A stretch of DNA of 64,000 bases from IMG/VR virus record IMGVR_UViG_3300031603_000001, positions 133,959 to 197,958 of that record; one strand, 5' to 3'. The translations under genes and the position numbers were made by a program. The DNA comes from a virus. The notes under the pieces were generated by a model. It made no database searches. It was not told the DNA's origin and was given only the letters and a program-made list of their open reading frames with translations. Below, one piece after another: positions 1,908 through 39,652 of the stretch. Each line of letters opens with the position of its first letter. Position 1 is the first letter of the stretch.

Positions 1908-1926
1908 TTGTATCTCCAGTTTAATA

Positions 1927-10994: not shown

Positions 10995-11314
10995 TATAAG
11001 GTCAATTTCTTGGACTCGTCTTCAGCCCTTTTAATGTTTTGCAAATGCTGTAAGACTATCCGCATATCTGTATGGAATTCACTATTTTGTAAACGTGCAG
11101 AACCTATCTTTTCCACTATTCCAATTAACCCTAAAACGCTTGCAGCCTTTTGAAGAGGGGACAATACATCATCAAATACATTTGTTTTACGAATAGCCTT
11201 TTCGGTATATGCTAAGGCACAGGTCAGATGACCTATTTGTGTATTATTCATCAGATTCCTTATCAACTGGTTCATACTTATGTTTCTTCTTAAACGGACG
11301 TAATAGCCAGGCAA
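10994..11314 (-). CDS. hypothetical protein
   Basis: 106-aa coupled ORF. Confidence 0.6.
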   Translation of the reverse strand: MPGYYVRLRRNISMNQLIRNLMNNTQIGHLTCALAYTEKAIRKTNVFDDVLSPLQKAASVLGLIGIVEKIGSARLQNSEFHTDMRIVLQHLQNIKRAEDESKKLTL

Positions 11315-13912: not shown

Positions 13913-14282
13913 CGGAGTCCTCTTCAACAATTTCAATATCGTCGGAATCGGGTATTACCACAGGAGCTACTGCTCTTTTGGGATGGTCAGGCACTGTAGC
14001 CCAGGCGCCTTCGACCATTTGCATACGCACGATTGTCTTCTCTTTATCAATCCCTTCTTCGTATTCGAAGTACAAGACTTTGTGCCCCAACTTAGTGAGG
14101 GCTTTGATAATGGAATTGACGGCATCCTTTGGTGCCTTACCTTTACGGTAATAATCTAAACCAGGACGTCCTGCGATCTTCAACGGTACACCATCAGTAT
14201 GATCAGTGAATATACCTTTCACCTGCCTCTGTGTGAAGTAGGAGTCTTGATCTAAGATGATTCTAATGTTGTGACTTGGCAT
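13896..14282 (-). CDS. hypothetical protein
   Basis: 128-aa ORF, acidic C-terminus. Confidence 0.65.
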   Translation of the reverse strand: MPSHNIRIILDQDSYFTQRQVKGIFTDHTDGVPLKIAGRPGLDYYRKGKAPKDAVNSIIKALTKLGHKVLYFEYEEGIDKEKTIVRMQMVEGAWATVPDHPKRAVAPVVIPDSDDIEIVEEDSDEDSK

Positions 14283-14844
14283 ACATCTCCAGGTTCTGGT
14301 TAGCCATAATGGCTTCCGCTATACTTACAGTTGAATTTACATCCAGTTTGGATAACGAGATCTGTCCGAATTCTACTAGCTCGGCTAAATCATCCATACC
14401 ATAAATGTCTTGACGACAGTTATCTTCGATAGGATGGTATATTGATACAGCAATATGAACACCAGCGTGGCCGGTATATTCTGTATTATGCTTATGATCG
14501 TGTATCTTACCTGCGTTAATCCAGCATTGCTCGATTATAGTACTATCAGGTAACTTCAGATCATAATGCATCTTAAGATAATTAGCACCGTCAAATGGTA
14601 CCCAGTTGCGAGCCTCTTCATTCCATTTGATACTCTTGAGCATACGCTTCTGATTATCTATGTATAGCGCTTCCCATCGTTCAATTTCATCAGTATCGAA
14701 TACATATTCATCACAATGATTACATATACTTACATGAGCGACAGGTACAATAAAATTGACACCTGCATCGAAGAGTTGTACAGCAAAGTCTATTACATCC
14801 TTCTCTTCCATTACACCAGCATTACAACTATTGCAAAGTTTCAT
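14263..14844 (-). CDS. YgiT/MqsA-type zinc-finger domain fused to unknown C-terminal domain
   Basis: MKLCNSCNAGVMEEK...VAHVSICNHCDEYVFDTDEIERWE; no HTH recognisable after it. Confidence 0.65.
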   Translation of the reverse strand: MKLCNSCNAGVMEEKDVIDFAVQLFDAGVNFIVPVAHVSICNHCDEYVFDTDEIERWEALYIDNQKRMLKSIKWNEEARNWVPFDGANYLKMHYDLKLPDSTIIEQCWINAGKIHDHKHNTEYTGHAGVHIAVSIYHPIEDNCRQDIYGMDDLAELVEFGQISLSKLDVNSTVSIAEAIMANQNLEMYAKSQH

Positions 14845-15418
14845 CTTGAAAGGCCTTCCTTACATTCATGAGCGTCATGCCCAATCGGTTTTGATTTGGC
14901 TTATCAAAGTCTTCACAAAGTGTACAATAACAGGCACCCCAGTATTGATCATGCCAGTCGTTAACTTCTATGATCTCACATTCTCCTGTATCTAGGAGTG
15001 CAGTACGTAACGCTTTATTTTGACTAAACTTCTGAAATACAAGCATCCACATAAGATGATCTTTGTGTTCTTCGAAGTCATCACGCATCACTACTTCTTT
15101 CCCGGCACGTTTAGCTTTACCAGGACTAAGCAGCTCTCGGATGCCTTCTTGTACATCATGATCTTCGCTTTTAAAAGCTTGGTAAGCATGCTCCACTGTC
15201 CTCCAAGTACGACTATCGTATACAAACGATGACTTGTAGAAATTAGATAAGAACTCAAATGCTCCAATAAATCCTTGGATAGGTTCCCCTGCATGGGTGT
15301 TGGCTTTGCCAACAATACCCCAGCCGTCCAATTGATTGTACACAGGAATACTATGCTTCTTTAAATAGGCAGTTGCTTTATTACACCCTTCGGATGTAAA
15401 TGGAAATTTAGTAGGCAT
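14828..15418 (-). CDS. NADAR (YbiA/RibX-like) family protein
   Basis: FLSNFY, TVEHAYQAFK, QKFSQNKALRTALLDTG, DQYWG, NRLGMTLMNVR. Confidence 0.92.
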   Translation of the reverse strand: MPTKFPFTSEGCNKATAYLKKHSIPVYNQLDGWGIVGKANTHAGEPIQGFIGAFEFLSNFYKSSFVYDSRTWRTVEHAYQAFKSEDHDVQEGIRELLSPGKAKRAGKEVVMRDDFEEHKDHLMWMLVFQKFSQNKALRTALLDTGECEIIEVNDWHDQYWGACYCTLCEDFDKPNQNRLGMTLMNVRKAFQDETLQ

Positions 15419-16241: not shown

Positions 16242-16314
16242 TACACCGGGCAGGGATCGAACCTGCGACCTTGGGATTAAGAATCCCCTGCTCTACCAAC
16301 TGAGCTACCGGTGC
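16242..16314 (-). tRNA. tRNA-Lys(CTT)
   Basis: GCACCGG/CCGGTGT acceptor, AGCTCAGTTGGTAGAGC D-arm, TTCTTAA loop, GGTTCGATCC T-arm; CCA not encoded. Confidence 0.92.
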
Positions 16315-16452
16315 ATGCGACCCCAAAACTGTTTGTTTTGGAGTCTGAATTTAACCGCCTATCTGGGAGGCTCGTTGATAATGAACATTAACGTGTGAAT
16401 GACATTCAAAGGAAGTGTCATTGATATTGTATAGTTTTTCATGGTTCCTTTC

Positions 16453-17013
16453 CTACGCGTATAGGCGCAGATTACCTGTAATAGGTTTTAACACATGTAC
16501 TGGCGCAGGGCCGATAGCAATGCATGTTGGAGTCTCTACTCCGTTGAATGCTGTACGACCAGCATCAATTATGTACGAGCACGGTATGTTTGCATCACGT
16601 GCCTGTCTGTACAGCTCGTTCATTTCATCAAGGCTCTCTACTCTACATACTATCTTAGTGAAGATACCACCTTCCCACTCTTGAGTCCAATCGTGGGTTT
16701 TGTAATCATTAACAGCTTTCTGTACAGCATGGGAACCTTGTGCAACCAATTTGCCACGGTTCATCTTTAGATCTTTGCGCATGATGATCATCATCTTGAG
16801 CTCAGCATCTAAGTCTACCTGAAGACTATCGTCACCGGTAGCATTGTAAATTACACCAACTTTGAGTAATTGTAACTCTTCATCACTTGCGAAATCAAGA
16901 GGTTTACTATACCCAGTTATGCAATCTGTACAGCCACAATCTGGAGGATCCATGCGTTTAATCATGGTTACCTCTTCAGTTTCAGGCATTAGCCACTCCT
17001 TTGGAGTGTTCAC
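16453..17013 (-). CDS. pth2: peptidyl-tRNA hydrolase type 2 (Pth2) with N-terminal Cys-motif domain
   Basis: KMMIIMRKDLKMNRGKLVAQGSHA, KIVCRV, IIDAGRT, TCIAIGP, ITGNLRL. Confidence 0.92.
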   Translation of the reverse strand: MNTPKEWLMPETEEVTMIKRMDPPDCGCTDCITGYSKPLDFASDEELQLLKVGVIYNATGDDSLQVDLDAELKMMIIMRKDLKMNRGKLVAQGSHAVQKAVNDYKTHDWTQEWEGGIFTKIVCRVESLDEMNELYRQARDANIPCSYIIDAGRTAFNGVETPTCIAIGPAPVHVLKPITGNLRLYA

Positions 17014-17344
17014 ATCCCCATTTTGAACGAGTATCAGGTTGTACCTTAATACTCATCCATATTTTAGTAACGCACCCAGAATTGGTACATTTGTAAATAC
17101 TGCTACGCTGGCCGTACATCCTAGCATTGCCTATTTTCTTGAATACATGCAGATGATAACGAGGGCGTAGGTACACATAATATCTGTACAGTGCGTAAAT
17201 TGCTAATGCAAATACTACCGAAGCTATGCCATCGATGATAGCATGATCCCAATTCTTATTGAAGATCTCTACCCATGTGAATGCGTATATAAATATCCAC
17301 GCCGCTGTTAACATACCGGCCGTGACTTTAACTGTGTTGTACAT
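16982..17344 (-). CDS. membrane protein with C-terminal Cys/His motif
   Basis: two TM helices then HLH..KCTNSGC. Confidence 0.6.
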   Translation of the reverse strand: MYNTVKVTAGMLTAAWIFIYAFTWVEIFNKNWDHAIIDGIASVVFALAIYALYRYYVYLRPRYHLHVFKKIGNARMYGQRSSIYKCTNSGCVTKIWMSIKVQPDTRSKWGCEHSKGVANA

Positions 17345-17610
17345 TACAGCTTCTTGTTGATCCACCAAGGCGTTGCCCCGGCTTTAATCTTTTTACTAAG
17401 TCTGAATGGTATTCCGAATACTACGCCGACACCAGTTGCAATTAGTGAATACACTAAGACAGTGCCTAAGCTCTGCCAATTAGCAATGAGTTGTATAAAA
17501 TACATGAGTAGTAAGAATACGGTGACAGTAGTGAAGAATGTACGAATGTTGTAGATTCGTCGATACAATTTCATACCAGCTTTGAATGGTAAACGTACAG
17601 TTAGTTTCAT
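17344..17610 (-). CDS. small membrane protein
   Basis: two TM helices. Confidence 0.65.
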   Translation of the reverse strand: MKLTVRLPFKAGMKLYRRIYNIRTFFTTVTVFLLLMYFIQLIANWQSLGTVLVYSLIATGVGVVFGIPFRLSKKIKAGATPWWINKKL

Positions 17611-17833
17611 AAGATCCTTCCAGGTTATGGGATTAGGGGTATAAGTATGATAGAGACTATTGCAGTACCAGCGATAGCTCTAATCATAAAGCTTACTGGC
17701 ATTATTACCTCTACATTTAAAGCTCGAAGGCTTACGTACACTTAGTGTACATAATTCCCGGGTTGATATGTAGAACAATAGTTACTATGATGCTTAGCAT
17801 CATCACCATAGTTTTAATGTAAATAAGTGAAGC

Positions 17834-18325
17834 TCATCGCCGATGCCCATCACCGCGTAAACGTTGATCCTCACGGTTGCTCGCTCTATCAGGCCTTGGT
17901 TCAAATTCCATATCTTGAAGCCTTTCGCTTAAGATTGCTATTTCTTGTACAGGGTCTGTCTTTGTTAACCCCATACTCTCAAGTACATGTAGTCCGTCAT
18001 TGTCGGAATTGCCTGATATCATAATGAGAGAACGGTCACCGAGCATATGCTCATTTGCCCTCACAGAGGCAATAGCGGCTGTTAACGTTGATATATCATG
18101 ATCACCTATACTGACGTACCCTATTGTAGGGTCAGTGTCTTTAAGGACGTCTACAAGCTTCTTAATAATTGGATAAATTCCAAATACTACGGACTCATCC
18201 TCTGCTTCGATAATTTCACCCATCTCAAGTAATTCAAAGTAATTAATGATAGGTGTAATATAGTTTCGTACACGCTCGAGAATACTCTCAAGCTTTAGTA
18301 TACGTAATTCTTCAGAATGTGACAT
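17834..18325 (-). CDS. hypothetical protein
   Basis: 163-aa ORF. Confidence 0.65.
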   Translation of the reverse strand: MSHSEELRILKLESILERVRNYITPIINYFELLEMGEIIEAEDESVVFGIYPIIKKLVDVLKDTDPTIGYVSIGDHDISTLTAAIASVRANEHMLGDRSLIMISGNSDNDGLHVLESMGLTKTDPVQEIAILSERLQDMEFEPRPDRASNREDQRLRGDGHRR

Positions 18326-18476
18326 AGCGAGACTTAGGTTTATACTTAAACTCTATGAATGGTTGTCTATCCCCAATTTCCGTAAGCTGACGCCCTTGAT
18401 TCTCAATGATGGCATTACGTAATTGTTTTTGCAGTTCTAGTACAATACGATCGAGTCTTAATATTTCAAAGTACAT
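18312..18476 (-). CDS. 54-aa hypothetical protein
   Basis: AAGGA RBS directly after tRNA-Cys; below ORF-track cutoff. Confidence 0.5.
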   Translation of the reverse strand: MYFEILRLDRIVLELQKQLRNAIIENQGRQLTEIGDRQPFIEFKYKPKSRYVTF

Positions 18477-18504
18477 AGTATTTTCCTTCTTTTAGAGGAT
18501 ATTG

Positions 18505-18577
18505 AGCGCAGAGCGAGACTTGAACTCGCATCCTCCAGGTTTGCAGCCCGGCGCCTAGCCAATTCAGCCATCTGCGC
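18505..18577 (-). tRNA. tRNA-Cys(GCA)
   Basis: GCGCAGA/TCTGCGC acceptor, U73, CTGCAAA loop, GAGTTCAAGTCTC T-arm. Confidence 0.92.
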
Positions 18578-18667
18578 ATTTATTTCTTCACAAAACCTAC
18601 ACGTGTCTGAGTGTTCAATGGTGTAGAATAATTCTACTTATACCTTCGAACACTCGAGCATGTGGTA

Positions 18668-18886
18668 TTATTTAATGTGTACTCTCCAAAACCATTTGGC
18701 ATTGAAGTATAATACATTCAACCCCCATAGGAAGAAGAACGCTGATATCACTTGTAGTATCTTATCCGGATGGAACCGCATAAACACTGTGTATAGTAGC
18801 ATAAGCATCATAGCGCCTATTGCGCCCATTGCGCTGTACACGGCACCCTTGATAATGATACCTATGAATATGAAGAAGTTCTTCAT
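18668..18886 (-). CDS. small membrane protein
   Basis: two TM helices; ATG 18886. Confidence 0.6.
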   Translation of the reverse strand: MKNFFIFIGIIIKGAVYSAMGAIGAMMLMLLYTVFMRFHPDKILQVISAFFFLWGLNVLYFNAKWFWRVHIK

Positions 18887-19050
18887 GATATGAGTAGCCC
18901 GAAGGTGAATGCCTCTTCCATCGTTAGAGTGAACCACTCTTCACCATCAGCTCCTTCATTAACACAGTACGGATTAAGTCCGAAGTGTGCTATAGCCTCA
19001 TCATTCCGTATAATGTCTTTGAGCTGTAGTTGAATCTTTGCTTTACGCAT
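18883..19050 (-). CDS. 55-aa hypothetical protein
   Basis: MRKAKIQLQLKDIIRND...NPYCVNEGADGEEWF; ATGA coupling. Confidence 0.5.
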   Translation of the reverse strand: MRKAKIQLQLKDIIRNDEAIAHFGLNPYCVNEGADGEEWFTLTMEEAFTFGLLIS

Positions 19051-19058
19051 TTCTCTAT

Positions 19059-19400
19059 TCATCTGATCCCCAATTCTTTGCAGATAGCCAGCGCTTTAGC
19101 CTCTCGGCCTTGCCTGAAGCCATCTTCCCTTACGTATGCTAATACTTTTATTATCTCTTTAGTGTTGAATTGTGTAAGACAGTCCTCATCTGTTGTAAAA
19201 ACAACAGCACCTAAGAGTCGAATACTTAGTTCTCGGTATTTACCGTACTTAAAATCTAAGTCAGTAACAATACCGTTACGAAGATACCATATGGTAGATG
19301 CGAAGTTAGCACTCTGATATCCAGTACGCCCACTGCCGCTGCCGTAGTATTTAAAACTACGTCGACGTTTGTGCATTACCTTAATCAGGGAACCCACCAA
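19059..19400 (-). CDS. hypothetical protein
   Basis: 113-aa ORF. Confidence 0.6.
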   Translation of the reverse strand: MVGSLIKVMHKRRRSFKYYGSGSGRTGYQSANFASTIWYLRNGIVTDLDFKYGKYRELSIRLLGAVVFTTDEDCLTQFNTKEIIKVLAYVREDGFRQGREAKALAICKELGIR

Positions 19401-27674: not shown

Positions 27675-28064
27675 TTAAAAGCTGTATTTATCCATCCAAC
27701 CGTCGATGACGTCTTTGGCCTCTCTGAGACCGATGTCTTTCTCAGCACGGTACAGTTTGATGGCTGGAATCTTTTTACCAGCGCGGAGCAGAATCATGTA
27801 GCGCCAGTCCTGTACATCCTCGCCAAGGTAAGTAAGCATAACCCCCGGCTTGGTGATGATCCACTCGGCCAGGAGGGCCTTGCGTTCATTATAAGTCATA
27901 CCAAGTACTATGGCTATGGGATGACGGTCACCATTGAGGGTATTTCCCATTTTACGACCGTGACGCTGAGTTATATGCGCCAGCAGATCGTCTATTGCGA
28001 AGCTATCAAACTTCATTAGCTCAACCATCATATTGATGATTGCAGCTTGTACTGCAGGGTCCAT
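27675..28064 (-). CDS. protein with C-terminal ribosomal L7/L12-CTD-like domain
   Basis: GKKIPAIKLYRAEKDIGLREAKDVID matches the L7/L12 KI.AIK..R...GLGLKEAK..VD helix pair. Confidence 0.65.
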   Translation of the reverse strand: MDPAVQAAIINMMVELMKFDSFAIDDLLAHITQRHGRKMGNTLNGDRHPIAIVLGMTYNERKALLAEWIITKPGVMLTYLGEDVQDWRYMILLRAGKKIPAIKLYRAEKDIGLREAKDVIDGWMDKYSF

Positions 28065-28232
28065 ATCGCCTCCTTAGGCTGGTTGTTTATAATCTATTAT
28101 TGTAATAACATTTAAAAACGTGTTACAACAATAAATATAAGTAATGCTTCTCTTGGCTTTTAAACCATCTTTTGCAGGTTATTTAGGTTGTTATCCATAC
28201 GAACTGGTTATCTCCCTTTTTTACCGCACTAC

Positions 28233-28733
28233 TCATATTCTTGTCATTACCATTAACGCTGTTGGTCTATTGAGCTCCAATATAACCTCGCCCATGGTAA
28301 CGTCAAGGCCTTCAGCTATTCTTTGTACATTATCATCACGATCAAACATAGTGTTCCAGTACCCGCCACCGCAGTTTATGGACTTGAGTAGTAAGGCCTT
28401 CTTGCAGTCCATAGGAAGTATGTGATAGTAGGGAGGTAGCGCCTTCTCACGCTCGTCGTGGCTGTCGAACACACAGTCAGCAATCCTCAATACTATATGT
28501 CCTGCAGCTCCAAGGAATGCACTGTCACCGTCAAAGTATCTAGTATTACGATTGTAGCTCTCATCGTACTCACTATGCCCATAGGCATAGATTACCTCAG
28601 CCTGTTCATAAAGATCAGGTGCGTACTTCTCCATCCACTTAAGCATAGCATAAGCAGAGATACCACATCCTCCATAATTAAGGCAGGGTATGGATTGTAA
28701 AACATCTAGCATATCATCAAATGACTGTGCCAT
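28233..28733 (-). CDS. hypothetical protein
   Basis: 166 aa, NYGGCGISAYAM...GHIVL. Confidence 0.7.
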   Translation of the reverse strand: MAQSFDDMLDVLQSIPCLNYGGCGISAYAMLKWMEKYAPDLYEQAEVIYAYGHSEYDESYNRNTRYFDGDSAFLGAAGHIVLRIADCVFDSHDEREKALPPYYHILPMDCKKALLLKSINCGGGYWNTMFDRDDNVQRIAEGLDVTMGEVILELNRPTALMVMTRI

Positions 28734-28837
28734 AATGCTCTCCCAGTTGTGTATTGTGATTGACTAAAGGGTTGGCCCCAGTGGGATAACCAGGGCCGAT
28801 CTCAGTACCAGGAAGGAACAAGGTACCGGTTAATGAG

Positions 28838-28912
28838 TGGATCCTCTTGGATTTGAACCAAGGACTAACGGATTATGAGTCCGCTGCTCTAACCAGACTG
28901 AGCTAAGGATCC
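28838..28912 (-). tRNA. tRNA with CAT anticodon, most like Ile2 (lysidine) rather than Met
   Basis: GGATCCTTAGCTCAGTCTGGTTAGAGCAGCGGACTCATAATCCG...GGTTCAAATCC; resembles the bacterial ileX pattern. Confidence 0.85.
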
Positions 28913-29000
28913 AGTAAATGGTATGTCTTACTCGGCGCATACCTTGCAACCATCACGGTACCGACTGATAACCTGAAGTATCAGCTCCCCTTGAAACAGT

Positions 29001-29546
29001 TTATAGGGCTGCGATCTCCTTTATAGTAGCAGGACCACAACCTTTAGCACCTTTGAGCTCTTCGATGCGGGCTTTAGCTTCTTGTACAGTAACTATCTCC
29101 CATGCATCCAAGACGTTACGAGCACGAGTACTCAGAGTGACATCATCAATGGAGGTAAGTGTGGTGGTTTTAACTACTGGTACAGCAACCTTCTTTGCTT
29201 TACGTACAACAGGCTCAGTTGAATGAGGAATAAATTTACCAGCCTTGACGTCAGCAATGCGTTGGTTCTGCTTGTCAGAGCGGAAGTAGGTACGACCAGC
29301 ATGCTGATAGATACGTTTCACAGTATCATGATCAACACCCTTACCCAGGATAAGGTCACGAGCTTGTATAGCGTTAACGAAGATTGGGTCACCACTCAGT
29401 AGGATAGCAGTGAGTTCAGCACGAATGCTGTCAGTTTCCTTGCCAAAGGTTTCACTCTTAATGATCTTAGCAAGGGTAAGGGCGGGGGTTTGAGAAGCCC
29501 TGGCTTGTGCTGCTTTTGCCTTTACGGCTGTTTTGAATTTGGACAA
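29001..29546 (-). CDS. protein with C-terminal RNA polymerase alpha-CTD-like (HhH) domain
   Basis: IDDVTLSTRARNVLDAWEIVTVQE...KGCGPATIKEI aligns with alpha-CTD IEDLELSVRSANCL..ENI.TIGDL...NLGKKSLTEI; TTG start with AAGGAGG. Confidence 0.7.
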   Translation of the reverse strand: MSKFKTAVKAKAAQARASQTPALTLAKIIKSETFGKETDSIRAELTAILLSGDPIFVNAIQARDLILGKGVDHDTVKRIYQHAGRTYFRSDKQNQRIADVKAGKFIPHSTEPVVRKAKKVAVPVVKTTTLTSIDDVTLSTRARNVLDAWEIVTVQEAKARIEELKGAKGCGPATIKEIAAL

Positions 29547-29797
29547 TTTAATGCCTCCTTTTGTTTAGTTAGTACCACATCAGCTTCCGATTCACCGGAC
29601 ATGTAGCTGCATAGCACATGAGCCACGCTTCCGGTCGGAACCCGTAACTCATAAACTGAGAACCCGACGGAGGAGGGCCGACGGAGGAGGTTCTGCCCGT
29701 TCGTGGGCTGGTGCTTCCATCATTGCAGGAAGCTACGGTGTACACATACACACTGCGGACCCTATTTATATACCACCGGGCCCTAGGTGGGTACACA

Positions 29798-30391
29798 TTA
29801 CTCTGTTACTATACTAGCTAAAGCGTCAGCTCTGTCATTACCTGGGTTACCAGAATGACCATTGATGTGCTTGTACGCTACGATGTACGCCTTGTTCTTA
29901 CTCATCAACTCTATATAAGCTTTGATGTGTATCTTAGCCAAGCCAACAGCGTTGACCTTCCACTCACCTAGTGGCCATTTGGCTACACCAACGTAATCAT
30001 GTACAATCACAACTGGTGTATCATTTTTCTTGGCCCACTGCATAGCATACATAGCGCCTGCCAACTCAGCGCCTATATTGTTACTCTCAATGAACGGGGT
30101 TGTGCCGCTATCAAAGGCTATCTCTTCCCCGTTCTTCCATATAGAGAATGCCCATCCTGCTTTGTTATTTCTGAAGCTACCATCAGTGTATGCCAGTACT
30201 TCAGTTGGTTTAGTTTCAACTACGAATGCCATCTCACTCTGATCAAGCCAGGCTTGTGCATCTGCTGTACTCTTGAAGCCCTTAAAATCATTGGCAACAC
30301 CAGTGACTAGAGCATCACATTCAGCCCATGTAGCTACGATGACGTTTGTTTTACGTCCTTGTTTAACTGCATAACAATTATATTTAGCCAT
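29798..30391 (-). CDS. rnhA: ribonuclease HI with N-terminal hybrid-binding (Cauli_VI) domain
   Basis: YAVKQGRK...TWAECDALVTG...FKGFKS; YTDGS, GAELAG, HDYVGV, GHSGNPGNDRADALA. Confidence 0.95.
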   Translation of the reverse strand: MAKYNCYAVKQGRKTNVIVATWAECDALVTGVANDFKGFKSTADAQAWLDQSEMAFVVETKPTEVLAYTDGSFRNNKAGWAFSIWKNGEEIAFDSGTTPFIESNNIGAELAGAMYAMQWAKKNDTPVVIVHDYVGVAKWPLGEWKVNAVGLAKIHIKAYIELMSKNKAYIVAYKHINGHSGNPGNDRADALASIVTE

Positions 30392-30408
30392 TCTATTTCC
30401 TTACTAAC

Positions 30409-30434
30409 ACAGGCCCCACCGAAGCAGGACCTGT
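30409..30434 (-). terminator. cUUCGg-capped hairpin after the RNA polymerase gene
   Basis: ACAGGTCCTGC-TTCG-GTGGGGCCTGT, 11-bp stem; weak U-tract. Confidence 0.5.
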
Positions 30435-30450
30435 ATCTGTTGATGTACGT

Positions 30451-33400
30451 TTATTTGAAGTACTTCTCATCTTCAAATGTGCCATGAACTGCCTGGTTAC
30501 TCTTGACACTGAAGTCAGCATATGGATCTACTGATTCACGTGGCTTAGCAGTACGTAGCTTATTAACACGTTTAGCATCCATACCATCGCCTATCAACAT
30601 CCATGCTGATTGAGTATGAGCCATACCATCTGGTTCCCACTCAAGAGCAGGAAGAGAGATAATGATCTCTTCACTTGGACGAACAGCACTATATTCTGTA
30701 CCGTACTCCAGTGAAGCACCACGTAAGTATGGAACACCATCTTCAATCGTGATTGACTCAGGATCCAGGATAGGTTCATTGTTTGGATTGTACACACGTA
30801 CTAGGCGTGACTTAGTATCAGGCATGAAGGTCATTGGACCGCCAGTCATCTCTACCAAGCTACCATAGTTCAAGTGTACGATGTATCCACCGTCTGTTAA
30901 CAGTGGGTTAGCAGCATCAAGATACCGTTTAGTCTCTACTAGCCTAGCAGCTACTGGAATGCACTGACCAGCACCCTGTACCATCTCTACTACAGCAGAC
31001 ATATGATCTGACGTTAGCCCACCAGGACGTAGTTCAGACCACAGGTTCTTGATTGATGCAAGCTCAGCTGTATTGACACCATCTACTTCTTCATCGGAAT
31101 GTATCATCCGTCCAGCGAAGACTGCAAGTGGTTCAACACCATCTCTAAGAGCTATGACCTCTTCTTCAACACGTATAAGTACGGTGTTCCAGATGAAGTC
31201 CATGTAATGTAATGGGTCTTCGATCTGTGTGGCTAAGATATCTTCCACATCACCACCGGTATTGAAGTCAGTCATTAACGCATTAACATCAGCACGTGCC
31301 CATGGCATTTCTACCATTTCACGTAGGCTCTGAGCAGTTAAATGCGCTTTCTCTAGCTCTATATAGATCTGAGCTTCGTTCTTCTTGAGACGTACTTCCG
31401 TGCGAAACTTAGCACCCTTAATAGTCAACTCAATTGACTGTAATATAGGCGTTAGGTTAAGATACGGTTTCTCATCAGTACCGTCAGCGAGAACCTTGTT
31501 ATAGATAAGTCCACGATAATACATATTAGTGTACTTACCAATTGATGCACTACCACTGAATACTGTGATAGCCTGTATTGCCATACTCTCCATTGTGGCA
31601 GAGCTTCTACGTCTCTCTAGTCCATCTTTATCGATGTTCAGTCCGACTAGTTCATCGATTAAGCCGGTCCTAATGAGCTTGTCAGCAATGGGTCCACGTA
31701 TAGTCAGTCCACCATCACCATCACTATCTGTGTTTAACTCACCAGCTAGTCCTGCTTCAAGTACAACGAATGGTCCTATGTTAGTACGACCAACCACTTG
31801 TGCAACACCAGCAACGATGGGATATTTACAGAACAACTTGTCACCACGTACACCGGCAACAGGCTTACGAAGAGCGTTGATCTTCTTTGCATGCTCTTCT
31901 GTAACTGTGATAACCAAGCGATACTCAGTGCCATTGAATGGTCTGTGCATCACATAGTTTACTACAACACCTGCTAGTTTCTTAGCTACCCAAGGAAAGG
32001 TCTTACCAAGAGCTAACAGTGCTTCTTGAAGCTTAGAGTTAAGCTCAAGTACTTCGTAGTCTGGATCATCGTTACGAAATGCTTGCATCCTACGACCAGA
32101 CTCAGCCGATACGATCATTTCTTCGTAACTTGGTAGCTTACCACGTAGTATCTCGTCTTCAACAAGATCACGTACGATTGGATCATCTTGCATGAACTGC
32201 CAGAATTCAAAGCCTAGTCCAACAGCTTGACCCTTAACATTCCATATGTTATCATGGGTGATGATCATCCCATTTTCTTTACCATGACGTCCTAGGTACT
32301 CACCAGGGGCAACAGGGTGTACTTTGACATCATTCTCACAGATGACTAGGTCATAGGCTTCCCACTCTAATGGAAAGTCTAATTGCATAGCATTGCGAGC
32401 ATGTGCGTATCCAACCATAACTCCCTTACCTACTGAGTTACCATTGATCCGTACTCTGAACTGACCACTGTTGTGACCACCAAGAGCGGCACCATCGCCA
32501 GGAAGACCGACTGCTCGGAACTTTGCTTCAGATACTACCAGTACCCTTGTGTTGTTGTACACGAAGTACCTACCGTCTTTGCTACCGGCGGGTGTGAACA
32601 GCAAGGACAAGTAACCTATAGCTTCGTGAGCAAACGCTAAGTCACCTTCTGGCCAATTACAAGCGTAGAATGTACCCTTGTTTAGACCAGTGCCGCCCAT
32701 ATATTGAAAGCCCTCATCAAGACTGAGCTTTAACATATAGGATTGAAACTTCTGTTGGAAGGGTTTATTCTTCAACAGTTGTTTAGCTAATCTCTTATCA
32801 CTCACCTTGATGGTGTAAGAGACAGCATCCTTAATACCGAACAAGGCACCAAGACAGATACGTATTGCTACATTCCCTGCCTTCATGTCAGTGTTTGGTA
32901 CTGGTTTGTGGATCTTGAAATCAAGCACAGACTTCATACCATCACGAGTTCTTTTCATCACTGTGATAGGTATGAGCATGTGTGTAATCTCTGTTGACCG
33001 TTCATCACCCTTGGCAACCAGTTCGTCTAAGAACGCTTGGTTGTTACTGGTGTTAAAGATTGCGCTGATTATATCAGTTAGTGAACGCATCTTTTCCTTC
33101 CTCTCCTTGTCCGTGGCTATTACTAGAACAGCAACACTGGCAAGGCTTGTGGTCATCCTGAGCTGACCTGTTGATAGGGCAATGCCCATTACCAATATGG
33201 ACAAGGCGATTATGCCACCTCGTCTTGTACCCAGCATCCGTTGTCCTACGAATCCCAGGGCTTTCTTGGCCGTACTTATTACTAAGCGGGACCAGGCTAG
33301 TGATACTCTTACTATGTAACTAGCATAAAGTACCGCGATTATGGCCATCACTGCTGATTTAATAGCAGTATTGACCGATTTAATGAATAAGGATGTTAAC

Positions 33401-33591
33401 ACTGTCCCTATCACTGTTTCTGTTCTATCTGTACGAGCATAGAACTTGGTTAAGCCCTTGCGTCCTTTGATCAGGATGTAAGAACTAGAGAGCCCAAAGC
33501 GGTCTCTCATGGTTGGTGTGATAGCAGCCGATGCTACGATCACAGTTCCTGCTATAAGCAAGAACGCGACAAACAAAACGATTGAATACAT
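30451..33591 (-). CDS. YonO/QDE-1-like single-subunit two-barrel RNA polymerase (core likely starts at 33090; in-frame hydrophobic N-terminal extension)
   Basis: ordered motifs PGDG...GQFR...GKGVMV...DLVICENDVK, FCKYP, LNTDSDGD (31714-31728), IGKYTN, ELTIKGAK; core 879 aa. Confidence 0.75.
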   Translation of the reverse strand: MYSIVLFVAFLLIAGTVIVASAAITPTMRDRFGLSSSYILIKGRKGLTKFYARTDRTETVIGTVLTSLFIKSVNTAIKSAVMAIIAVLYASYIVRVSLAWSRLVISTAKKALGFVGQRMLGTRRGGIIALSILVMGIALSTGQLRMTTSLASVAVLVIATDKERKEKMRSLTDIISAIFNTSNNQAFLDELVAKGDERSTEITHMLIPITVMKRTRDGMKSVLDFKIHKPVPNTDMKAGNVAIRICLGALFGIKDAVSYTIKVSDKRLAKQLLKNKPFQQKFQSYMLKLSLDEGFQYMGGTGLNKGTFYACNWPEGDLAFAHEAIGYLSLLFTPAGSKDGRYFVYNNTRVLVVSEAKFRAVGLPGDGAALGGHNSGQFRVRINGNSVGKGVMVGYAHARNAMQLDFPLEWEAYDLVICENDVKVHPVAPGEYLGRHGKENGMIITHDNIWNVKGQAVGLGFEFWQFMQDDPIVRDLVEDEILRGKLPSYEEMIVSAESGRRMQAFRNDDPDYEVLELNSKLQEALLALGKTFPWVAKKLAGVVVNYVMHRPFNGTEYRLVITVTEEHAKKINALRKPVAGVRGDKLFCKYPIVAGVAQVVGRTNIGPFVVLEAGLAGELNTDSDGDGGLTIRGPIADKLIRTGLIDELVGLNIDKDGLERRRSSATMESMAIQAITVFSGSASIGKYTNMYYRGLIYNKVLADGTDEKPYLNLTPILQSIELTIKGAKFRTEVRLKKNEAQIYIELEKAHLTAQSLREMVEMPWARADVNALMTDFNTGGDVEDILATQIEDPLHYMDFIWNTVLIRVEEEVIALRDGVEPLAVFAGRMIHSDEEVDGVNTAELASIKNLWSELRPGGLTSDHMSAVVEMVQGAGQCIPVAARLVETKRYLDAANPLLTDGGYIVHLNYGSLVEMTGGPMTFMPDTKSRLVRVYNPNNEPILDPESITIEDGVPYLRGASLEYGTEYSAVRPSEEIIISLPALEWEPDGMAHTQSAWMLIGDGMDAKRVNKLRTAKPRESVDPYADFSVKSNQAVHGTFEDEKYFK

Positions 33592-33676
33592 TTAAGTATC
33601 CTTTCATTTTTTGATACATCTATCCCGTGACTGACCCACGTTATTCAGTCAAGATGTATCTATTATGTGGGTTTTG

Positions 33677-33721
33677 TAGGGCGTAGGGGAATCGAACCCC
33701 ATTGAATCTACCACACGCCCT
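33677..33721 (-). ncRNA. 45-nt mini-tRNA: acceptor + D-loop-like linker + T-arm, no anticodon arm
   Basis: AGGGCGT-GTGGTAGATTCAA-TGGGG-TTCGATT-CCCCT-ACGCCCT-A-CAA. Confidence 0.7.
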
Positions 33722-33735
33722 TCCTTACTTACTAG

Positions 33736-34146
33736 TTATGCACTAGCATCACTCAGCAGCTGATTGTATTGCAGCCAGTTGCGGTCTGCTCTTTCACTAA
33801 CTTCAAGGTAGAAGTCAGAGAGCTTTGTCTTCTCACTCACCAGCTCCCCGTTCTTCCATGTAGAGCGTATCCTAGCATGGGCTGATACTGCTATAGGCAG
33901 CTCAGGGTGTTTCTTTGATAGGGCACAAGCAAGTTTGTCAGCGTTAGCTTCTACAAACCATTGTACCTTATTGCCCCATCCTACCATTGCATTCACATTC
34001 CAAGTCGTATGGTCTCTGTCTAATGCGTACCCGGTCTCAGGTTCACGGTCAGGGATACTCATATGATCAGTGAAATCAAGCGCTTCGAACGCCTCTTTGT
34101 TAAGACGGTTAGCCTTCACTGTGTAATGCTCTTCTTGGGTACTCAT
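33736..34146 (-). CDS. hypothetical protein
   Basis: 136-aa ORF. Confidence 0.7.
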   Translation of the reverse strand: MSTQEEHYTVKANRLNKEAFEALDFTDHMSIPDREPETGYALDRDHTTWNVNAMVGWGNKVQWFVEANADKLACALSKKHPELPIAVSAHARIRSTWKNGELVSEKTKLSDFYLEVSERADRNWLQYNQLLSDASA

Positions 34147-34280
34147 CTCTTACCTTCTTTCTTTGTGTTATTAGTTCTTTTCCACTCACGTATCTCACGC
34201 CCGAGCTTAGCCTGTATGGCACGTTCCTTGGGTGTCATCTCCTGCCCACCCCAGCTGATGTTGGCCTTGATATTACGCAT
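34143..34280 (-). CDS. 45-aa basic peptide
   Basis: coupled at both ends (TGATG and ATGA). Confidence 0.5.
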   Translation of the reverse strand: MRNIKANISWGGQEMTPKERAIQAKLGREIREWKRTNNTKKEGKR

Positions 34281-34915
34281 CACTCTACGTCCTTGTTAAC
34301 ACCGATGTTACCTACGCTACCACCTACTAGTACATTGCAGCGTGCTACCTCATCCAGCTGTGCCTGTGTTGCTAGCTCACGTACTATGGGTGAGTGGTCT
34401 ATGTTGTACGCATCCATGTCCGCCTGTATCTTACGCTCACGTAGTACACTGATGCCCATGCCTAGTACACATACCAATGAGAGCACACTCACCAATGTTC
34501 TACTGTATGGTGTACCTGCCTTCACTACAGTCACCTCGGTGCGTACACGTGTTGTGTCCATGTCCATGTAGCAATCACGTATATAGCTATACATATCACT
34601 ACTATCAGCCAAGACGATGGTATGCGCACTCACATGTATATTACAGTTATCACATACAGCTGTGTCTACGTATCTACCTAGCAGTGGGTGCCATGATGAT
34701 ACCATATGTGTGTTGGTCAACCTAGCCCTACGTATATCAGTAGCATCGTAATGCTTGTGGTACTGCCCATGTCCTAGCATGAAGAAGGTTAGAATTATGA
34801 TTGAATACATTAACGTGTTCCATACCCAGTATGATGGGCTATACTCCTCATACTTTACAGTCATAGGCACACATACTACTACCGCTACTACGGCTAAAAC
34901 GATTAACAGAGTCAT
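34280..34915 (-). CDS. membrane protein, first gene of the leftward arm
   Basis: three TM segments; ATG 34915 after GAGAGGAG. Confidence 0.7.
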   Translation of the reverse strand: MTLLIVLAVVAVVVCVPMTVKYEEYSPSYWVWNTLMYSIIILTFFMLGHGQYHKHYDATDIRRARLTNTHMVSSWHPLLGRYVDTAVCDNCNIHVSAHTIVLADSSDMYSYIRDCYMDMDTTRVRTEVTVVKAGTPYSRTLVSVLSLVCVLGMGISVLRERKIQADMDAYNIDHSPIVRELATQAQLDEVARCNVLVGGSVGNIGVNKDVE

Positions 34916-35167
34916 GATGACTCCTCTCAATCTTTACCTACTTACAAGTAAGAGTCCCTATGGTGTAGGTCTGACCATAGAACTCCGCGATTATTTTAAA
35001 GACCGGGGCCCTCGAAACAAAAGTTATGTATACTATATATACATACTACCCATTAACGTACAGAATATAAAATCCCATATATGCATACGATACTTGCTCT
35101 TTCGCAACTAATCTTGGATATCCGATCCTAAATATATAATATTATTATTAATCTTAGGTTTATATAG

Positions 35168-35356
35168 GTGTTTCGAGCAGGAATCAAAGTCACAGCCATG
35201 CACGACCCTGCGGTTACATTACCACCAGAAGCCGACTATGAGGACACTGCCTGCGACATCGACCATATCTTGCCTTATAAATTCGGGGGAACTACGACAG
35301 AAGAAAATCTCCAGGTTACTTGTAGAAAGTGTAACGCAGAAAAGGGTATCAGTTAA
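35168..35356 (+). pseudogene. HNH endonuclease fragment
   Basis: DIDHILPYKFGGTTTEENLQVTCRKCNAEKG; N-terminal CxxC missing, in-frame TAG immediately upstream. Confidence 0.65.
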
Positions 35357-35417
35357 TCCGCCTTGTACAGTTGAGAAAGCGTACTGGCTAATTCGTAATA
35401 TATAGGGATTAGCCCCT

Positions 35418-36490
35418 TTTACTTGGTCGGTTACTTGGTCGGTTACTTGTACAGGAGATCTCATATATATATATAATAAATAAACAGGCTTATATAGGCG
35501 CAACTACCTATCAAAATGCCTTCTATCCGGAAAGGTTGGGTAGTTTCCGGGCAACTTAGGTACTATCATGGACACTGTCATGGACACTGTGTCTATGTAA
35601 ACGGCCAAAATCCGGCCAATCCGGCCAACATGGACAGGTTGTCCAAGCTGTATTATAGGGGCCATAAAGTTTAATATAGGGGACCTTATCGTCCATATTA
35701 AAGGTTAATGGATAGTATAAGGACCACTATACTGTACGTTAAATAGGGATAACGTTCAGGATACCATATGTTACTTTAGAGGCTTAAAGTACAATATAGT
35801 ATTCCTTATGTTACTTTAGAGTAGTTATGAGACAGTACTGTACCCACTATATTGTGTGTTGAATGCCTTATTTAGTGTGATTCAGGGATATAGAACATGT
35901 CCATGCCATCGACATGACACAAAAACATGTATATATTTGTGTCAGAAATCGACACGTTCTCTCTAATAATTCTATACTAAAGGCAGACAATCGCAATATA
36001 CCCTGGTTATCCAGATATGTATCAACACTTCTGATACACATACCCTTGTGTCAGGAATACTGACACCTGACGTGTCGTCATATGGAGAATTCAGCGACTC
36101 GTTCTCTGTACATGTCGTCACCAGCGACTCGTTAATGCATCAACTAATAACAATCGCACAGCGCCAAGTAATAAGAATTGCACAGGATGCCGTTTAACAC
36201 CCTCTTGTGCAAACTAAATAACACAAACATGGAGATAATATATTACCGTTAGTACAGTAAAGTGGAGATAAATGGTAGATATTTTATCCTAAGTTGCGGG
36301 ATAGGGATAATATTTTACCGTAAGAGCAGTAATCCGCAGTCTACTCCGCAGATTTGCGGGATAAGTAAAAGACATACTAAAGGACAATCTGTCTTATAGC
36401 GACATTTATAGCGACACAATGTCGCGTAAAGGACACAGCAGTTGTGCACTATCCTATGTAATGCACAATATTTAGCACGGAATGTGCACA
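35418..36490. repeat. non-coding tract of successive short-word repeat clusters at the strand switch
   Basis: TTACTTGGTCGG x2.5, ATGGACACTGT x2, TCCGGCCAA x2, TATGTTACTTTAGAG x2, CAGCGACTCGTT x2, GCGGGATA x2, TAGCGACA x2, TGTGCAC x2. Confidence 0.8.
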
Positions 36491-36654
36491 GGAGACAATC
36501 AACAGTATGCGCCGACAGAGCTATTCAAGTATATAGTAAGGAGAGAGTAGGGGAAGAAGAATACACAAGGCAATACGACTTGAATCCCTTATAGAGTAAC
36601 AGTCTACTAGGCAATCTGATATCGCGCTGGGTTGTCTCTTAGTATTGGGGGTTA

Positions 36655-37070
36655 GTTAAAGATAGCATACCTGGCCCTTACCGTCACTACTACAGGACTG
36701 ATATCTTGAGAAGATATAGTATAAACCACTAAGCTAGGGTTGTAGTAGAACAGTAAGCTTACATCTGGGCCATGCGAGAAGATGTAAAGAGAGTAGCAAT
36801 GTGACATGCCGTCACGCCCCGGGTTAGGAGGACTTGTATTATCATGCACTTCCGACGCCCTTTGCAGGGGATGACTGAAGATCCTCTGAGTCTGCAATAA
36901 GCAAATTTCTCGTATTGGGATCTGACGATTATCCAGGGCCTTACACCGAACAACCACGCCGTACTTGTAGCACTCTCGTTCAAATAGCTGAAGGATCCAC
37001 ACTCGCTCGATGGCCGGGGACCCATAGGTACGTAATGGTATGTCATAGAGCTGTATACTGACTTAAGAAG
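36655..37070 (+). ncRNA. candidate ~410-nt multibranched structured RNA
   Basis: no credible ORF; nested 5-8 bp stems and end-to-end pairing (see findings). Confidence 0.35.
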
Positions 37071-37166
37071 AAGTAAGAATTACCGGAAAAGGCGAATTCC
37101 AGAAGGGGTTATGAGAATGAGGGAATAAGTAGGGGAATAATAGAGGGAATAAAGAGAGACATAACA

Positions 37167-37574
37167 ATGGATAGAAAGAGGAGAATCCATATGTGGAATG
37201 ATTATTTACCGACAATTCGTTTTCGTAAGACAGTAGAGCAGGCTGAGGCAGACCTAGACTTCCAGAAGAGCCGGGTGGCTGAATTAAGAGATTTGCGTTT
37301 GCTGGACAAACGTAATATTGCTGCGTTGGCAGAGCAGGTGATTATAAGTGAATTAGAGTGGGGGAGAGGGAATGTGATTACACACACGACGTCAAATGTA
37401 CCGTTGACTGCTAGGACGTTTTTACTTAGCCCTACGGGAGTAATTTTGGTGAAGTGTGAGATGTTGCATGCTGATATAAATGGTATCGAGAAGAGGTACA
37501 TAACGTACCCAGCATTAGAGATGATAGATGTGGCGGAGATGCCGCCAGAGGTTGTAGGAGTTGAAGATGACTAA
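37167..37574 (+). CDS. hypothetical protein, first gene of the rightward arm
   Basis: 135-aa ORF. Confidence 0.7.
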   Translation: MDRKRRIHMWNDYLPTIRFRKTVEQAEADLDFQKSRVAELRDLRLLDKRNIAALAEQVIISELEWGRGNVITHTTSNVPLTARTFLLSPTGVILVKCEMLHADINGIEKRYITYPALEMIDVAEMPPEVVGVEDD

Positions 37575-38007
37575 TACTTTAGCAGACGCCGCGTACCAAG
37601 TACACAAGGCCGAACTATTCAATGTGTTCGGTCATGGCTACTTTAAGATATTATCCGAGGGGATGCCGTTCTTCGCATACCGCCCGGAGACGCCAGAGGG
37701 CAAAGAGCCTGAGTGGCACGTGATGACGAGCTCCACTACTGTAGAGATCTTCACCACTGCGGAGTTGGCGGACCTGGAGGTAGTAGCACCTTATCCCCTC
37801 GACGCGCTGTATGTGCTTCAACATTCCGCAGATGATCCGCCTGAGACACTAGAGGCCAGGCACGATTGCCCAGTGGTGTGCCCTGGTTGTTTCACCCATA
37901 TGAGTGACGGTGCTGGCGGCAACCTGTACTGTGCCCATGAGACGTGTAAGCATTATAAGAAGAGATTTAAGCGCCCTAAAGTGACGCTTACGAGAATTCC
38001 TGATTAG
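37567..38007 (+). CDS. hypothetical protein with C-terminal zinc ribbon
   Basis: CPGC...YCAHETC. Confidence 0.7.
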   Translation: MTNTLADAAYQVHKAELFNVFGHGYFKILSEGMPFFAYRPETPEGKEPEWHVMTSSTTVEIFTTAELADLEVVAPYPLDALYVLQHSADDPPETLEARHDCPVVCPGCFTHMSDGAGGNLYCAHETCKHYKKRFKRPKVTLTRIPD

Positions 38008-38062
38008 GAATAGAACAAGCATACCAACGTACTAACTAACTAACTAACGAAAGGAACTAAGT

Positions 38063-38587
38063 ATGCACTTAATAAACAATGGAGGCAACTCCGCGATATC
38101 GTTTAACTCACAAGGACCAGGCGTACTGGGAGCTGTGAGTTGCAACTACATGAGAACAGGGGACTTCACGGAACCTTTGAAGAGTGCGGAGTTTACTACA
38201 TATCCGCCTCTTGACCTAAATGTACCGTACACCGTGCCGGAGCCGTACGTATATCCCTACACTCCACCTACTTGGTGGGGCGGGGCAGGCGGTACAGGAG
38301 TGACGCCTGGGACTATGGACGACAGTAAACCAGAACCACTGACTTTCGAAGACATTAGGATTGCTCCTAGTGTTAAGCTTCACTTTGATGATATCAGTAC
38401 AGAAGACTACAGGACGTACCATTATGCTGACGGCTCTACCGTTACGTACCTGGACCCTGTAGCTCTTGCGATCACGAAGGGTGGCCACCGTCTTATCACA
38501 GCAGACGGGGAGTGTCATTATATTCTCACTACCTGGCAACGTATCAGTTGGAAGGTACCTGGAGAAGAATTCCACTTCGTCAAGTAA
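38063..38587 (+). CDS. phage hypothetical protein
   Basis: C-terminal FDDISTEDYRTYHY...GGHRLI...HYI...W.ISW; Pro/Tyr-rich N-part. Confidence 0.7.
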   Translation: MHLINNGGNSAISFNSQGPGVLGAVSCNYMRTGDFTEPLKSAEFTTYPPLDLNVPYTVPEPYVYPYTPPTWWGGAGGTGVTPGTMDDSKPEPLTFEDIRIAPSVKLHFDDISTEDYRTYHYADGSTVTYLDPVALAITKGGHRLITADGECHYILTTWQRISWKVPGEEFHFVK

Positions 38588-38657
38588 ACTAGTACGGCAG
38601 CGGGGCACTCACCTCGCTGCCATACCATATAGTAATAATTAACATGAGGAAAGAAAC

Positions 38658-39227
38658 ATGCCAGGAACAAAACCAGCAGCCAAGAAAAAGACTGCACCAA
38701 AGAAATCAGTAGCGACTAAAGTAGAAACCAAGGTAGAACCCGTAGTTGAGGCTGTAGTAGAACCAGTAATCGAGGAAGTGGCTGCAGAGCCAGTAATCGA
38801 ACCAGTAGTAGAAGTAACTCCAGCAGCGGAAGCCGCTCCTATTGAGGAATTGAAACCATTGGAAATGCCTGCGTTTGAAATGACCGAAGAGATCAGCGAA
38901 AAGATCAAAGGGTTCATCGCAGACGCGGTGTACAAAACTGATGAGAACATCAAAGCTACCGTAGATGCAGCTATTGAGAACTTGCCTATTGATATGGGTA
39001 AGAAGGAAAAGCCTTCCCAGGAAGTAAGCTTAACCGCCGATAGTAACCTACAGAACTTTAAGTTCATCATGGCAGAAGGCGCACCGGAGTCGTCAGACTT
39101 TATGGTAGCAATCTTCGGCCTACTGAACGCTTCTATCCTGTTACCAAAGGGCGAAGACACAGATATTGCTATCTGGAAATTCAATGAAAAATGGCTAGCT
39201 CACGCTAAGCTGGTACCAGCAGAGTAA
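38658..39227 (+). CDS. acidic low-complexity protein
   Basis: Lys-rich start then (V/I)EPV repeats. Confidence 0.75.
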   Translation: MPGTKPAAKKKTAPKKSVATKVETKVEPVVEAVVEPVIEEVAAEPVIEPVVEVTPAAEAAPIEELKPLEMPAFEMTEEISEKIKGFIADAVYKTDENIKATVDAAIENLPIDMGKKEKPSQEVSLTADSNLQNFKFIMAEGAPESSDFMVAIFGLLNASILLPKGEDTDIAIWKFNEKWLAHAKLVPAE

Positions 39228-39230
39228 GCA

Positions 39231-39554
39231 ATGAATCCAAGTCCATATGATTGCCCGACTCAAGACCGGATTACCAAGGTATATAACAACATCACTGGTT
39301 TGAATAAAACCTTTGGTGAAATCTGGAAGCAGATGTACCGTGGCGCATTCGAATCTCGAACCGGGCATTGGGTTTCTCCTCCACTATTTGATTACATCCC
39401 TGAGTGGTTCTATGAGCAGTTTGACATTGCTATGACTGCTGCTAATAGACGAGAGTTCGCACCGGATATCGTGCATTTCGAGACGGAATCTTTGGCTGTC
39501 AATAACCTTCGGGACAAGTATGACGGAGATGTAGTCTTCGGCACACCTGTCTGA
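39231..39554 (+). CDS. hypothetical protein
   Basis: 107-aa ORF. Confidence 0.7.
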   Translation: MNPSPYDCPTQDRITKVYNNITGLNKTFGEIWKQMYRGAFESRTGHWVSPPLFDYIPEWFYEQFDIAMTAANRREFAPDIVHFETESLAVNNLRDKYDGDVVFGTPV

Positions 39555-39582
39555 TAAGATCACCGGCTAAGGCTTGACCACG

Positions 39583-39652
39583 GTCTACAGACAGGAGCCC
39601 TTTGGTGGGGCAGCACATAGCTGAGGTTCGAATCCAGACCCAGTCTGTAGAC
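39583..39652 (+). ncRNA. tRNA-like fold with 10-bp closing stem and stunted anticodon arm
   Basis: GTCTACAGAC/GTCTGTAGAC perfect stem enclosing GCCC-TTTGGTG-GGGC, AGC-ACATA-GCT and GGTTCGAATCC. Confidence 0.55.

Follow-up and report, generated by a model that had tools for sequence, protein, structure and literature searches.

Introduction

Phage tRNA genes are usually discussed as decoders or, more recently, as replacements for tRNAs cut by host defenses. Here we analyze four tRNA-shaped elements (elements 1-4) in an uncultured phage, IMG/VR record IMGVR_UViG_3300031603_000001 (197,958 bp, rated complete), of which the terminal 64 kb, bases 133959-197958, form the stretch examined and are referred to as the window. 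The closest described counterparts of these elements are the t-elements of plant mitochondria, non-canonical tRNA-like folds that are cut by RNase P and RNase Z to yield mRNA ends (Forner et al. 2007, PMC1920247) and that persist as small RNAs with an added C or CA (PMC1920247). Elements 1-3 resemble t-elements in their T-loop consensus, in their position between genes on polycistronic RNA, and in being non-decoding, and the mechanism that we propose is the same. The two differ in that t-elements belong to another kingdom and another type of genome, and in that processing has been demonstrated for t-elements whereas it is predicted for the phage. No paper describing such phage elements was found in the literature searched.

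Phages nonetheless encode other small RNAs to which the elements can be compared. RNAC and RNAD of phage T4 are small RNAs from the tRNA transcription unit with an unexplained role (PMC3014915); they too are phage RNAs found beside real tRNAs, but they lie within the tRNA region, whereas the elements described here are dispersed among open reading frames (ORFs) outside the main tRNA cluster. The known phage tRNA mimic is the YrlA-type Y RNA, which occurs with Ro60/Rsr in bacteria and phages (Chen et al. 2014, PMC4201824; RF02553). YrlA presents a tRNA-like D/T elbow without decoding, and the present genome carries a predicted Ro60-like protein together with four YrlA-like modules. YrlA differs from a tRNA in being circularly permuted, with the T arm before the D arm, a closed acceptor, and a Ro-binding stem; elements 1-3, in contrast, are ordered like a normal tRNA, are open at the acceptor end, and lack the handle, while the permuted modules upstream of the window do fit YrlA.

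Two further comparisons concern single elements. The tRNA-like domain of transfer-messenger RNA (tmRNA) shares with element 2 a G3.U70 pair, A73, a T arm, and a long helix in the place of the anticodon arm, but in element 2 the D arm is complete, and a tag frame, pseudoknots, and a match to the Rfam tmRNA models are all lacking; the best tmRNA score in the phage's own genome is only 14 bits (Rfam). RNase P, the CCA-adding enzyme, and some synthetases accept acceptor/T-arm minihelices as substrates, and synthetic minihelices (minihelix-Ala and similar) have the same architecture as element 3 and as RNAs of two distant relatives, L164 and L165. The synthetic minihelices are laboratory constructs, whereas those RNAs are genome-encoded, and element 3 lacks G3.U70.

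Structure of the tRNA-shaped elements

Elements 1-3 are tRNA-derived genes that have kept the top half of the tRNA and are unable to decode. In the reading that we favor, they are tRNA genes that lost decoding and have been kept or tolerated as "top-half" structures in long minus-strand operons. The four elements, with the methods by which each was identified, are as follows (window positions):

22431-22510, minus strand: element 1, a near-perfect full cloverleaf with a 24-nt anticodon arm (RF00005, 47.8 bits, above threshold)
27428-27515, minus strand: element 2, a tRNA-Ala paralogue with a 12-bp rod arm (inspection and T-arm/acceptor scan)
33677-33721, minus strand: element 3, a 45-nt acceptor/T-arm minihelix (inspection, fold, and T-arm/acceptor scan)
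39583-39652, plus strand: element 4, a 10-bp inverted repeat around a degenerate cloverleaf-like fold (inspection and fold)

The initial annotation had described all four as tRNA mimics with remodeled anticodon arms, and the structural part of that description holds for elements 1, 2, and 3. Folding and inspection confirmed that their acceptor and T stems are largely intact and that the D-loop GG is kept, and also that the anticodon region is unusual in element 1 (24-nt arm) and element 3 (no arm); element 4 is at best a decayed relic. A canonical anticodon loop (5-bp stem, 7-nt loop, U33, and purine 37) was found in none of elements 1-4. With RF00005, whose gathering score is 29 bits, element 1 was recovered, whereas elements 2, 3, and 4 went unreported when a 483-nt search was relaxed to E 10; ARAGORN missed element 2 as well.

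Element 1 has acceptor, D, and T stems without mismatch, all of the bases that make tertiary contacts, and an A73 followed by C. In the RF00005 alignment, 14 nt stand in place of the 7-nt anticodon loop. The minimum-energy fold is the cloverleaf itself (z-score -2.5), in which the extended arm forms 9 bp (6 bp, a bulged C, and 3 bp) under a 5-nt loop and is more helical than shuffles (p 0.041). No clear parent was found. The 14-nt insert is identical to the stretch spanning anticodon loop, 3' stem, and variable loop of tRNA-Ala(UGC) in two IMG/VR phages, and the exact IMG/VR search with this 14-mer returned at least 118 chance matches in addition to those two tRNA-Ala genes.

Element 2 is similarly intact, with 7/7 acceptor pairs, 5/5 T-stem pairs, a canonical T loop, a consensus D arm, no mismatch in any of the three stems, and all tertiary-contact bases present. 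Its anticodon arm, first reported as 30 nt, measures 28 nt by our count and 30 nt if a sixth pair is included; its fold is a 12-bp rod interrupted by one bulge (self-complementarity against shuffles, p 0.064). Among 49 tRNAs compared, its closest match is the tRNA-Ala(UGC) of a relative, L175, with which it has an unusual D loop in common, and an exact IMG/VR search with an 18-mer from element 2 gave one unrelated match. The alanine identity set is complete (G1-C72, G2-C71, G3.U70, G4-C69, and A73), and, among the elements, the tmRNA-type combination of G3.U70 and A73 occurs in element 2 only. G3.U70 with A73 suffices for alanine identity even in minihelices. The suggestion that these RNAs are aminoacylatable but non-decoding is thus reasonable for element 2, which has the full set and cannot decode, and for that element only. 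Directly upstream lies a hairpin (window 27519-27595, minus strand) whose loop matches alpha-tmRNA weakly, at a non-significant 16-19 bits.

Element 3 consists of a 7-bp acceptor, a 13-nt linker with GG, a 4-bp T stem, and a canonical T loop, with one U.U mismatch. It sits about 15 nt past the upstream ORF and 85 nt ahead of the gene for a 1046-aa polymerase-like protein, and its top Rfam match is mascRNA at 20 bits, which is not significant. Minihelices are not confined to this locus. A second occurs in the same genome at 121372-121423, and L164, a distant relative with the same polymerase-like gene, has one of 34 nt at 1302-1335. L165, also a distant relative, carries two paralogous 48-nt minihelices (3854-3901 and 4193-4240) with identical acceptor and T arms, and their middle hairpins differ by compensating changes.

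In element 4 the 11-nt T-loop consensus is matched exactly and a 10-bp stem closes the structure, but the T stem has no more than 2-3 pairs and the anticodon arm is a 3-bp stub. The fold gives a z-score of -1.85, and among 200 shuffles 10 do as well. The spread of mismatches and loss of tertiary-contact bases typical of a tRNA pseudogene are clear in this element and absent from elements 1 and 2, and element 4 is probably a decayed tRNA relic.

Genomic distribution and context

The elements belong to a genome in which perfect T arms are strongly patterned: there are 34 against 1.7 expected by chance, all on the minus strand, and all are intergenic and in the same orientation as the genes. The ends of elements 1-3 have the context of real tRNA genes, with an A/T-rich leader and a discriminator followed by C, whereas the length on the anticodon side is free (24, 28, and 0 nt). 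Between the elements, promoter-like sites (43 against 40 expected) and terminator-like sites (15 against 11 expected) show no enrichment, which fits long transcripts in need of endonucleolytic processing.

Additional abnormal tRNA-like RNAs of 105, about 108, and 131 nt, and one at 118288-118377, lie upstream of the window, so that roughly a dozen abnormal but well-folded tRNA-likes accompany about 25 canonical tRNAs in the genome. Two of those upstream have arm self-complementarity p values of 0.0055 and 0.13, and with elements 1 and 2 the inserted arms of the four reach a Fisher combined p of about 0.001. The inserted arms are thus more self-complementary than composition predicts, and the tRNA body still folds. 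Within the genome the inserted arms are not repeated elsewhere, and neither element 1 nor element 2 has a close paralogue. One upstream RNA (about 116657-116764, L032 2657-2764, minus strand) contains 35 nt that can be removed exactly at 37/38, leaving a loop identical at 6/7 positions to that of the tRNA-Arg(ACG) encoded by the phage; the 35 nt pair with the anticodon region and could be an intron-like insertion.

Most of the canonical tRNAs lie at 121-132 kb, immediately ahead of the window. The four normal tRNAs first noted within the window were all recovered by ARAGORN and by Rfam, and they are interspersed every 1.4-4.8 kb:

16242-16314, minus strand: tRNA-Lys(CUU), canonical (ARAGORN; RF00005, 68.6 bits)
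18505-18577, minus strand: tRNA-Cys(GCA), canonical (ARAGORN, RF00005)
25636-25716, minus strand: tRNA-Tyr(GUA), canonical, class II with the long variable arm of the bacterial type (ARAGORN, RF00005)
28838-28912, minus strand: tRNA-Met(CAU), canonical (ARAGORN, RF00005)

Ahead of the window, the phage tRNA-Gly(GCC) at genome 130103-130175 combines a G3.U70 pair with U73, placing an alanine determinant in a glycine tRNA.

The initial annotation had also pointed to a context of tRNA-repair enzymes, and profile searches bear this out for an RNA ligase, PTH2, a metallophosphoesterase, and a remnant of RtcB that covers 42 of 426 profile positions. A search for a CCA-adding enzyme found none encoded by the phage. 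The relevant protein-coding features are:

672-2042, minus strand: RNA ligase with an N-terminal PHA02142 OB domain (Pfam, PHROG)
4545-4667, minus strand: RtcB N-terminal remnant in a 78-aa frame (first 42/426 profile positions)
12856-13404, minus strand: calcineurin-like phosphoesterase, the metallophosphoesterase (profile match)
14828-15418: NADAR (profile match)
16453-17013, minus strand: PTH2-type peptidyl-tRNA hydrolase, adjoining tRNA-Lys (Pfam PF01981, E 2e-33)
30451-33591, minus strand: 1046-aa protein with an invariant, RNA-polymerase-like DxDGD motif, downstream of element 3 (alignment)

The portal protein shares only about 30% identity with portals of the Bacillus phage 0305phi8-36 type and of the Acinetobacter jumbo phage ME3. 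The gene for the large terminase subunit (window 50972-53236) bears an intein splicing domain.

Ro60-like protein and permuted tRNA-like modules

Just ahead of the window, on the minus strand, a gene at genome 132398-133834 (L032 18398-19834) encodes a 478-aa DUF2828+DUF7788 protein. Its AlphaFold model (pLDDT 84, pTM 0.85) has Ro60 as all 12 of its best PDB Foldseek matches, over the full length, with a best E of 1e-7 and a TM of about 0.5; these include the proteins of Thermus phage phiLo, Xenopus, Deinococcus, and human. The TROVE Pfam model gave no match to this protein. On the strength of the structural model, the phage is predicted to encode a Ro60-like protein. In transcription order its gene directly precedes four circularly permuted tRNA-like modules, whose T arms lie at 126245, 127382, 128563, and 132322 (L032). 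The modules have common flanks, AACC..ACAGCAA on the 5' side and, on the 3' side, a hairpin capped by a GNRA-type loop, and their YrlA (RF02553) matches, at about 35 bits, fall short of the gathering score of 69.

Judged by the Ro60-like gene, P0005 is the closest relative, at 78% identity. L175, at 60% identity, has the same Ro60-like gene, 26 tRNAs, and the same flanked modules at about 9540-9690, 10960-11110, and 13720-13890. At 14245-14343, L175 also carries a gene resembling tRNA-Tyr(GUA) that ARAGORN missed; it lacks a D arm, and its variable region is 38 nt long.

Other phages that encode Ro60-like proteins contain two kinds of altered tRNA. The first is a conserved family of 99-110-nt anticodon-less tRNA-like RNAs with an invariant 5' block, in which 8/19 pairs show double compensatory changes; the family was missed by ARAGORN and is not present in the genome studied here. 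The second comprises tRNA scaffolds in which the anticodon arm has been swapped for a handle, that is, a hairpin followed by an ACAGCA-type sequence:

Anticodon-less 99-110-nt family: L205 23-131; L212 5414-5517; L228 1015-1124; L237 6422-6524; L238 16637-16735; L245 5921-6027
Handle-tagged tRNA bodies: L197 about 6001-6113; L207 about 4437-4553; L217; L240; L245 about 2353-2468

The handle of the Y-RNA-like modules is absent from elements 1-4, and motif searches across the window were at or below chance, which keeps the elements apart from the Ro60-like system. A candidate Ro-type handle in element 2 was rejected, as the pattern "hairpin plus CAGCA" is too common (48 matches, overlapping registers counted, against 26 in shuffles).

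Relatives and strain variants

Relatives of the locus were sought through the neighboring 1046-aa protein, and all proved to be only 30-36% identical. As single IMG/VR queries, SSB, the 1046-aa protein, and the portal retrieved either nothing or generic SSB loci only; a search with an alignment of the 1046-aa protein gave no IMG/VR match and 12 metagenome loci at 30-35% identity. No called tRNA was found nearby in relatives identified through this protein, including at the syntenic places. GenBank searches of phages with element 1, element 2, and the L033 RNA described next returned short tRNA-Gly-like 5' matches or nothing.

Three distant relatives do carry analogous RNAs, namely the minihelices of L164 and L165 and a mini-tmRNA in L033, a relative with 195 kb of sequence. 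The latter (L033 16756-16879) is a 124-nt tmRNA-like RNA that scores 51.6 bits with RF00023 against a threshold of 47 and has G3.U70 and a tmRNA-type analogue of the D loop, but no tag frame is evident. Phage records in GenBank contain nothing that matches it.

Population variants (L036-L039) are 99.9-100% identical to the window, with zero changes inside any element. The L037 sequence stops matching at window 28109, which corresponds to L037 15482, and the genes that replace the window sequence there include those for a methyltransferase and an APS-kinase-like protein; this point marks a recombination hotspot or, alternatively, a chimera of the assembly.

Discussion

Elements 1-3 may act as processing punctuation in the manner of t-elements while also releasing stable tRNA-like RNAs, a reading that we favor tentatively and that draws on the plant mitochondrial analogy. 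Like t-elements, they have a non-canonical fold with the T-loop consensus and lie between genes, in the sense orientation of a polycistronic unit. RNase P, RNase Z or 3' exonucleases, and the CCA-adding enzyme all recognize the part of a tRNA in which the acceptor helix stacks on the T arm. The parts kept in elements 1-3 are the ones that tRNA-processing enzymes read, and this offers a simpler explanation than decoys. Under such a mechanism, the elements would be co-transcribed with the flanking small ORFs, as the four normal tRNAs would be, and host RNase P would cut at their 5' ends. The 3' end would be trimmed at the discriminator and then completed to CCA, as for the neighboring tRNAs. The polycistronic RNA would thereby be cut into defined mRNAs, among them the polymerase-like mRNA, whose 5' end would be set at element 3, 85 nt ahead of the gene, and stable tRNA-shaped RNAs of 45-88 nt, barred from decoding, would be released. 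Element 2, with its full identity set for alanyl-tRNA synthetase (AlaRS), would probably be alanylated, either as a side effect or as an added function.

Several observations weigh against a processing role. The identity of the element 1 insert to a stretch of tRNA-Ala looks like a rearrangement scar rather than design, and the state of element 4 is evidence that this genome does let tRNA relics decay. Searches of IMG/VR and of metagenome relatives of the neighboring proteins found no orthologue for any of elements 1-4. The strain variant L037, an ENA assembly 99.9% identical to the window, has unrelated genes below window 28109 and the element 2 region is gone, which would make at least element 2 dispensable. 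Finally, the nearby normal tRNAs could already supply processing sites.

A somewhat doubtful alternative is that all four elements are neutral relics, tRNA pseudogenes produced by indels or recombination that have no function and still fold only since their lesions are recent. Part of the element 1 arm corresponds, scar-like, to the anticodon-arm 3' side together with the variable loop of an ordinary tRNA-Ala from other phages, and this reading would also account for the degeneracy of element 4, the loss of the element 2 region in L037, the lack of tRNAs at syntenic places in distant relatives, and the failure of RF00005 to report elements 2-4. It sits poorly, however, with the mismatch-free acceptor, D, and T stems and complete tertiary-contact bases of elements 1 and 2, which, having no close paralogue in the genome, are not recent copies. 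Nor does it predict that the extra arm sequence would be helical beyond chance, that well-folded abnormal tRNA-likes would be so numerous beside the normal tRNAs, or that comparable anticodon-less families in other phages would covary as clearly as they do.

It is unlikely that the elements are instead trans-acting mimics, whether decoys for tRNA-targeting toxins, an alanylated non-decoding RNA in the case of element 2, or clients or partners of the Ro60-like protein. The AlaRS identity set of element 2 is what such a reading would call for, and the phage encodes PTH2, an RNA ligase, and the predicted Ro60-like protein. The tmRNA-like RNA of L033, with its G3.U70 and no evident tag, and the replacement of the anticodon arm by a Ro-type handle on tRNA scaffolds in other Ro60-like-encoding phages also point this way. 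However, elements 1-4 themselves lack the handle, no anticodon-independent identity set is known for element 1 or element 3, and the element 2 region is missing from a strain variant. The counter-defense decoy system put forward in the initial annotation received no direct support: no defense or anti-defense gene is linked to elements 1-4, orthologues were not found, and one of the four elements has decayed. A more elaborate form of the proposal, which we consider improbable, is that elements 1-3 and the other abnormal tRNA-likes make up a deliberate trans-acting set of top-half mimics that would titrate or misdirect proteins reading the elbow or the CCA end (host tRNA-targeting toxins, for example, or the Ro60-like particle of the phage itself), with element 2 charged with alanine yet kept out of decoding. 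If true, this set would be an undescribed phage RNA counter-defense or an accessory to RNA surveillance.

That the extra nucleotides are introns whose removal gives normal decoding tRNAs is very improbable: the phage does have an RNA ligase, ARAGORN in its intron mode reads element 1 as tRNA-Leu interrupted by a 5-nt intron, and element 2 allows four 11-nt deletions after which the loop has 7 nt, U33, and purine 37 (one yielding the alanine anticodon GGC), but no single contiguous deletion of all those enumerated restores a 5-bp stem with U33 and purine 37 in element 1, none of the element 2 solutions falls at 37/38, no bulge-helix-bulge is present, inserts of 7 nt (element 1) and 11 nt (element 2) are far below the size of a group I intron, element 3 has no arm whatever, and bacteria are not known to have a tRNA splicing endonuclease.

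If anticodon-less tRNA bodies are kept as processing marks or as mimics, phage "pseudo-tRNAs" would constitute a functional class of RNA, one that tRNA finders and Rfam partly miss, as illustrated by element 2, which is invisible to both. Element 2 would then be a natural alanine-accepting RNA unable to decode. Even if the elements are only relics, the genome documents the scrambling of phage tRNA repertoires.

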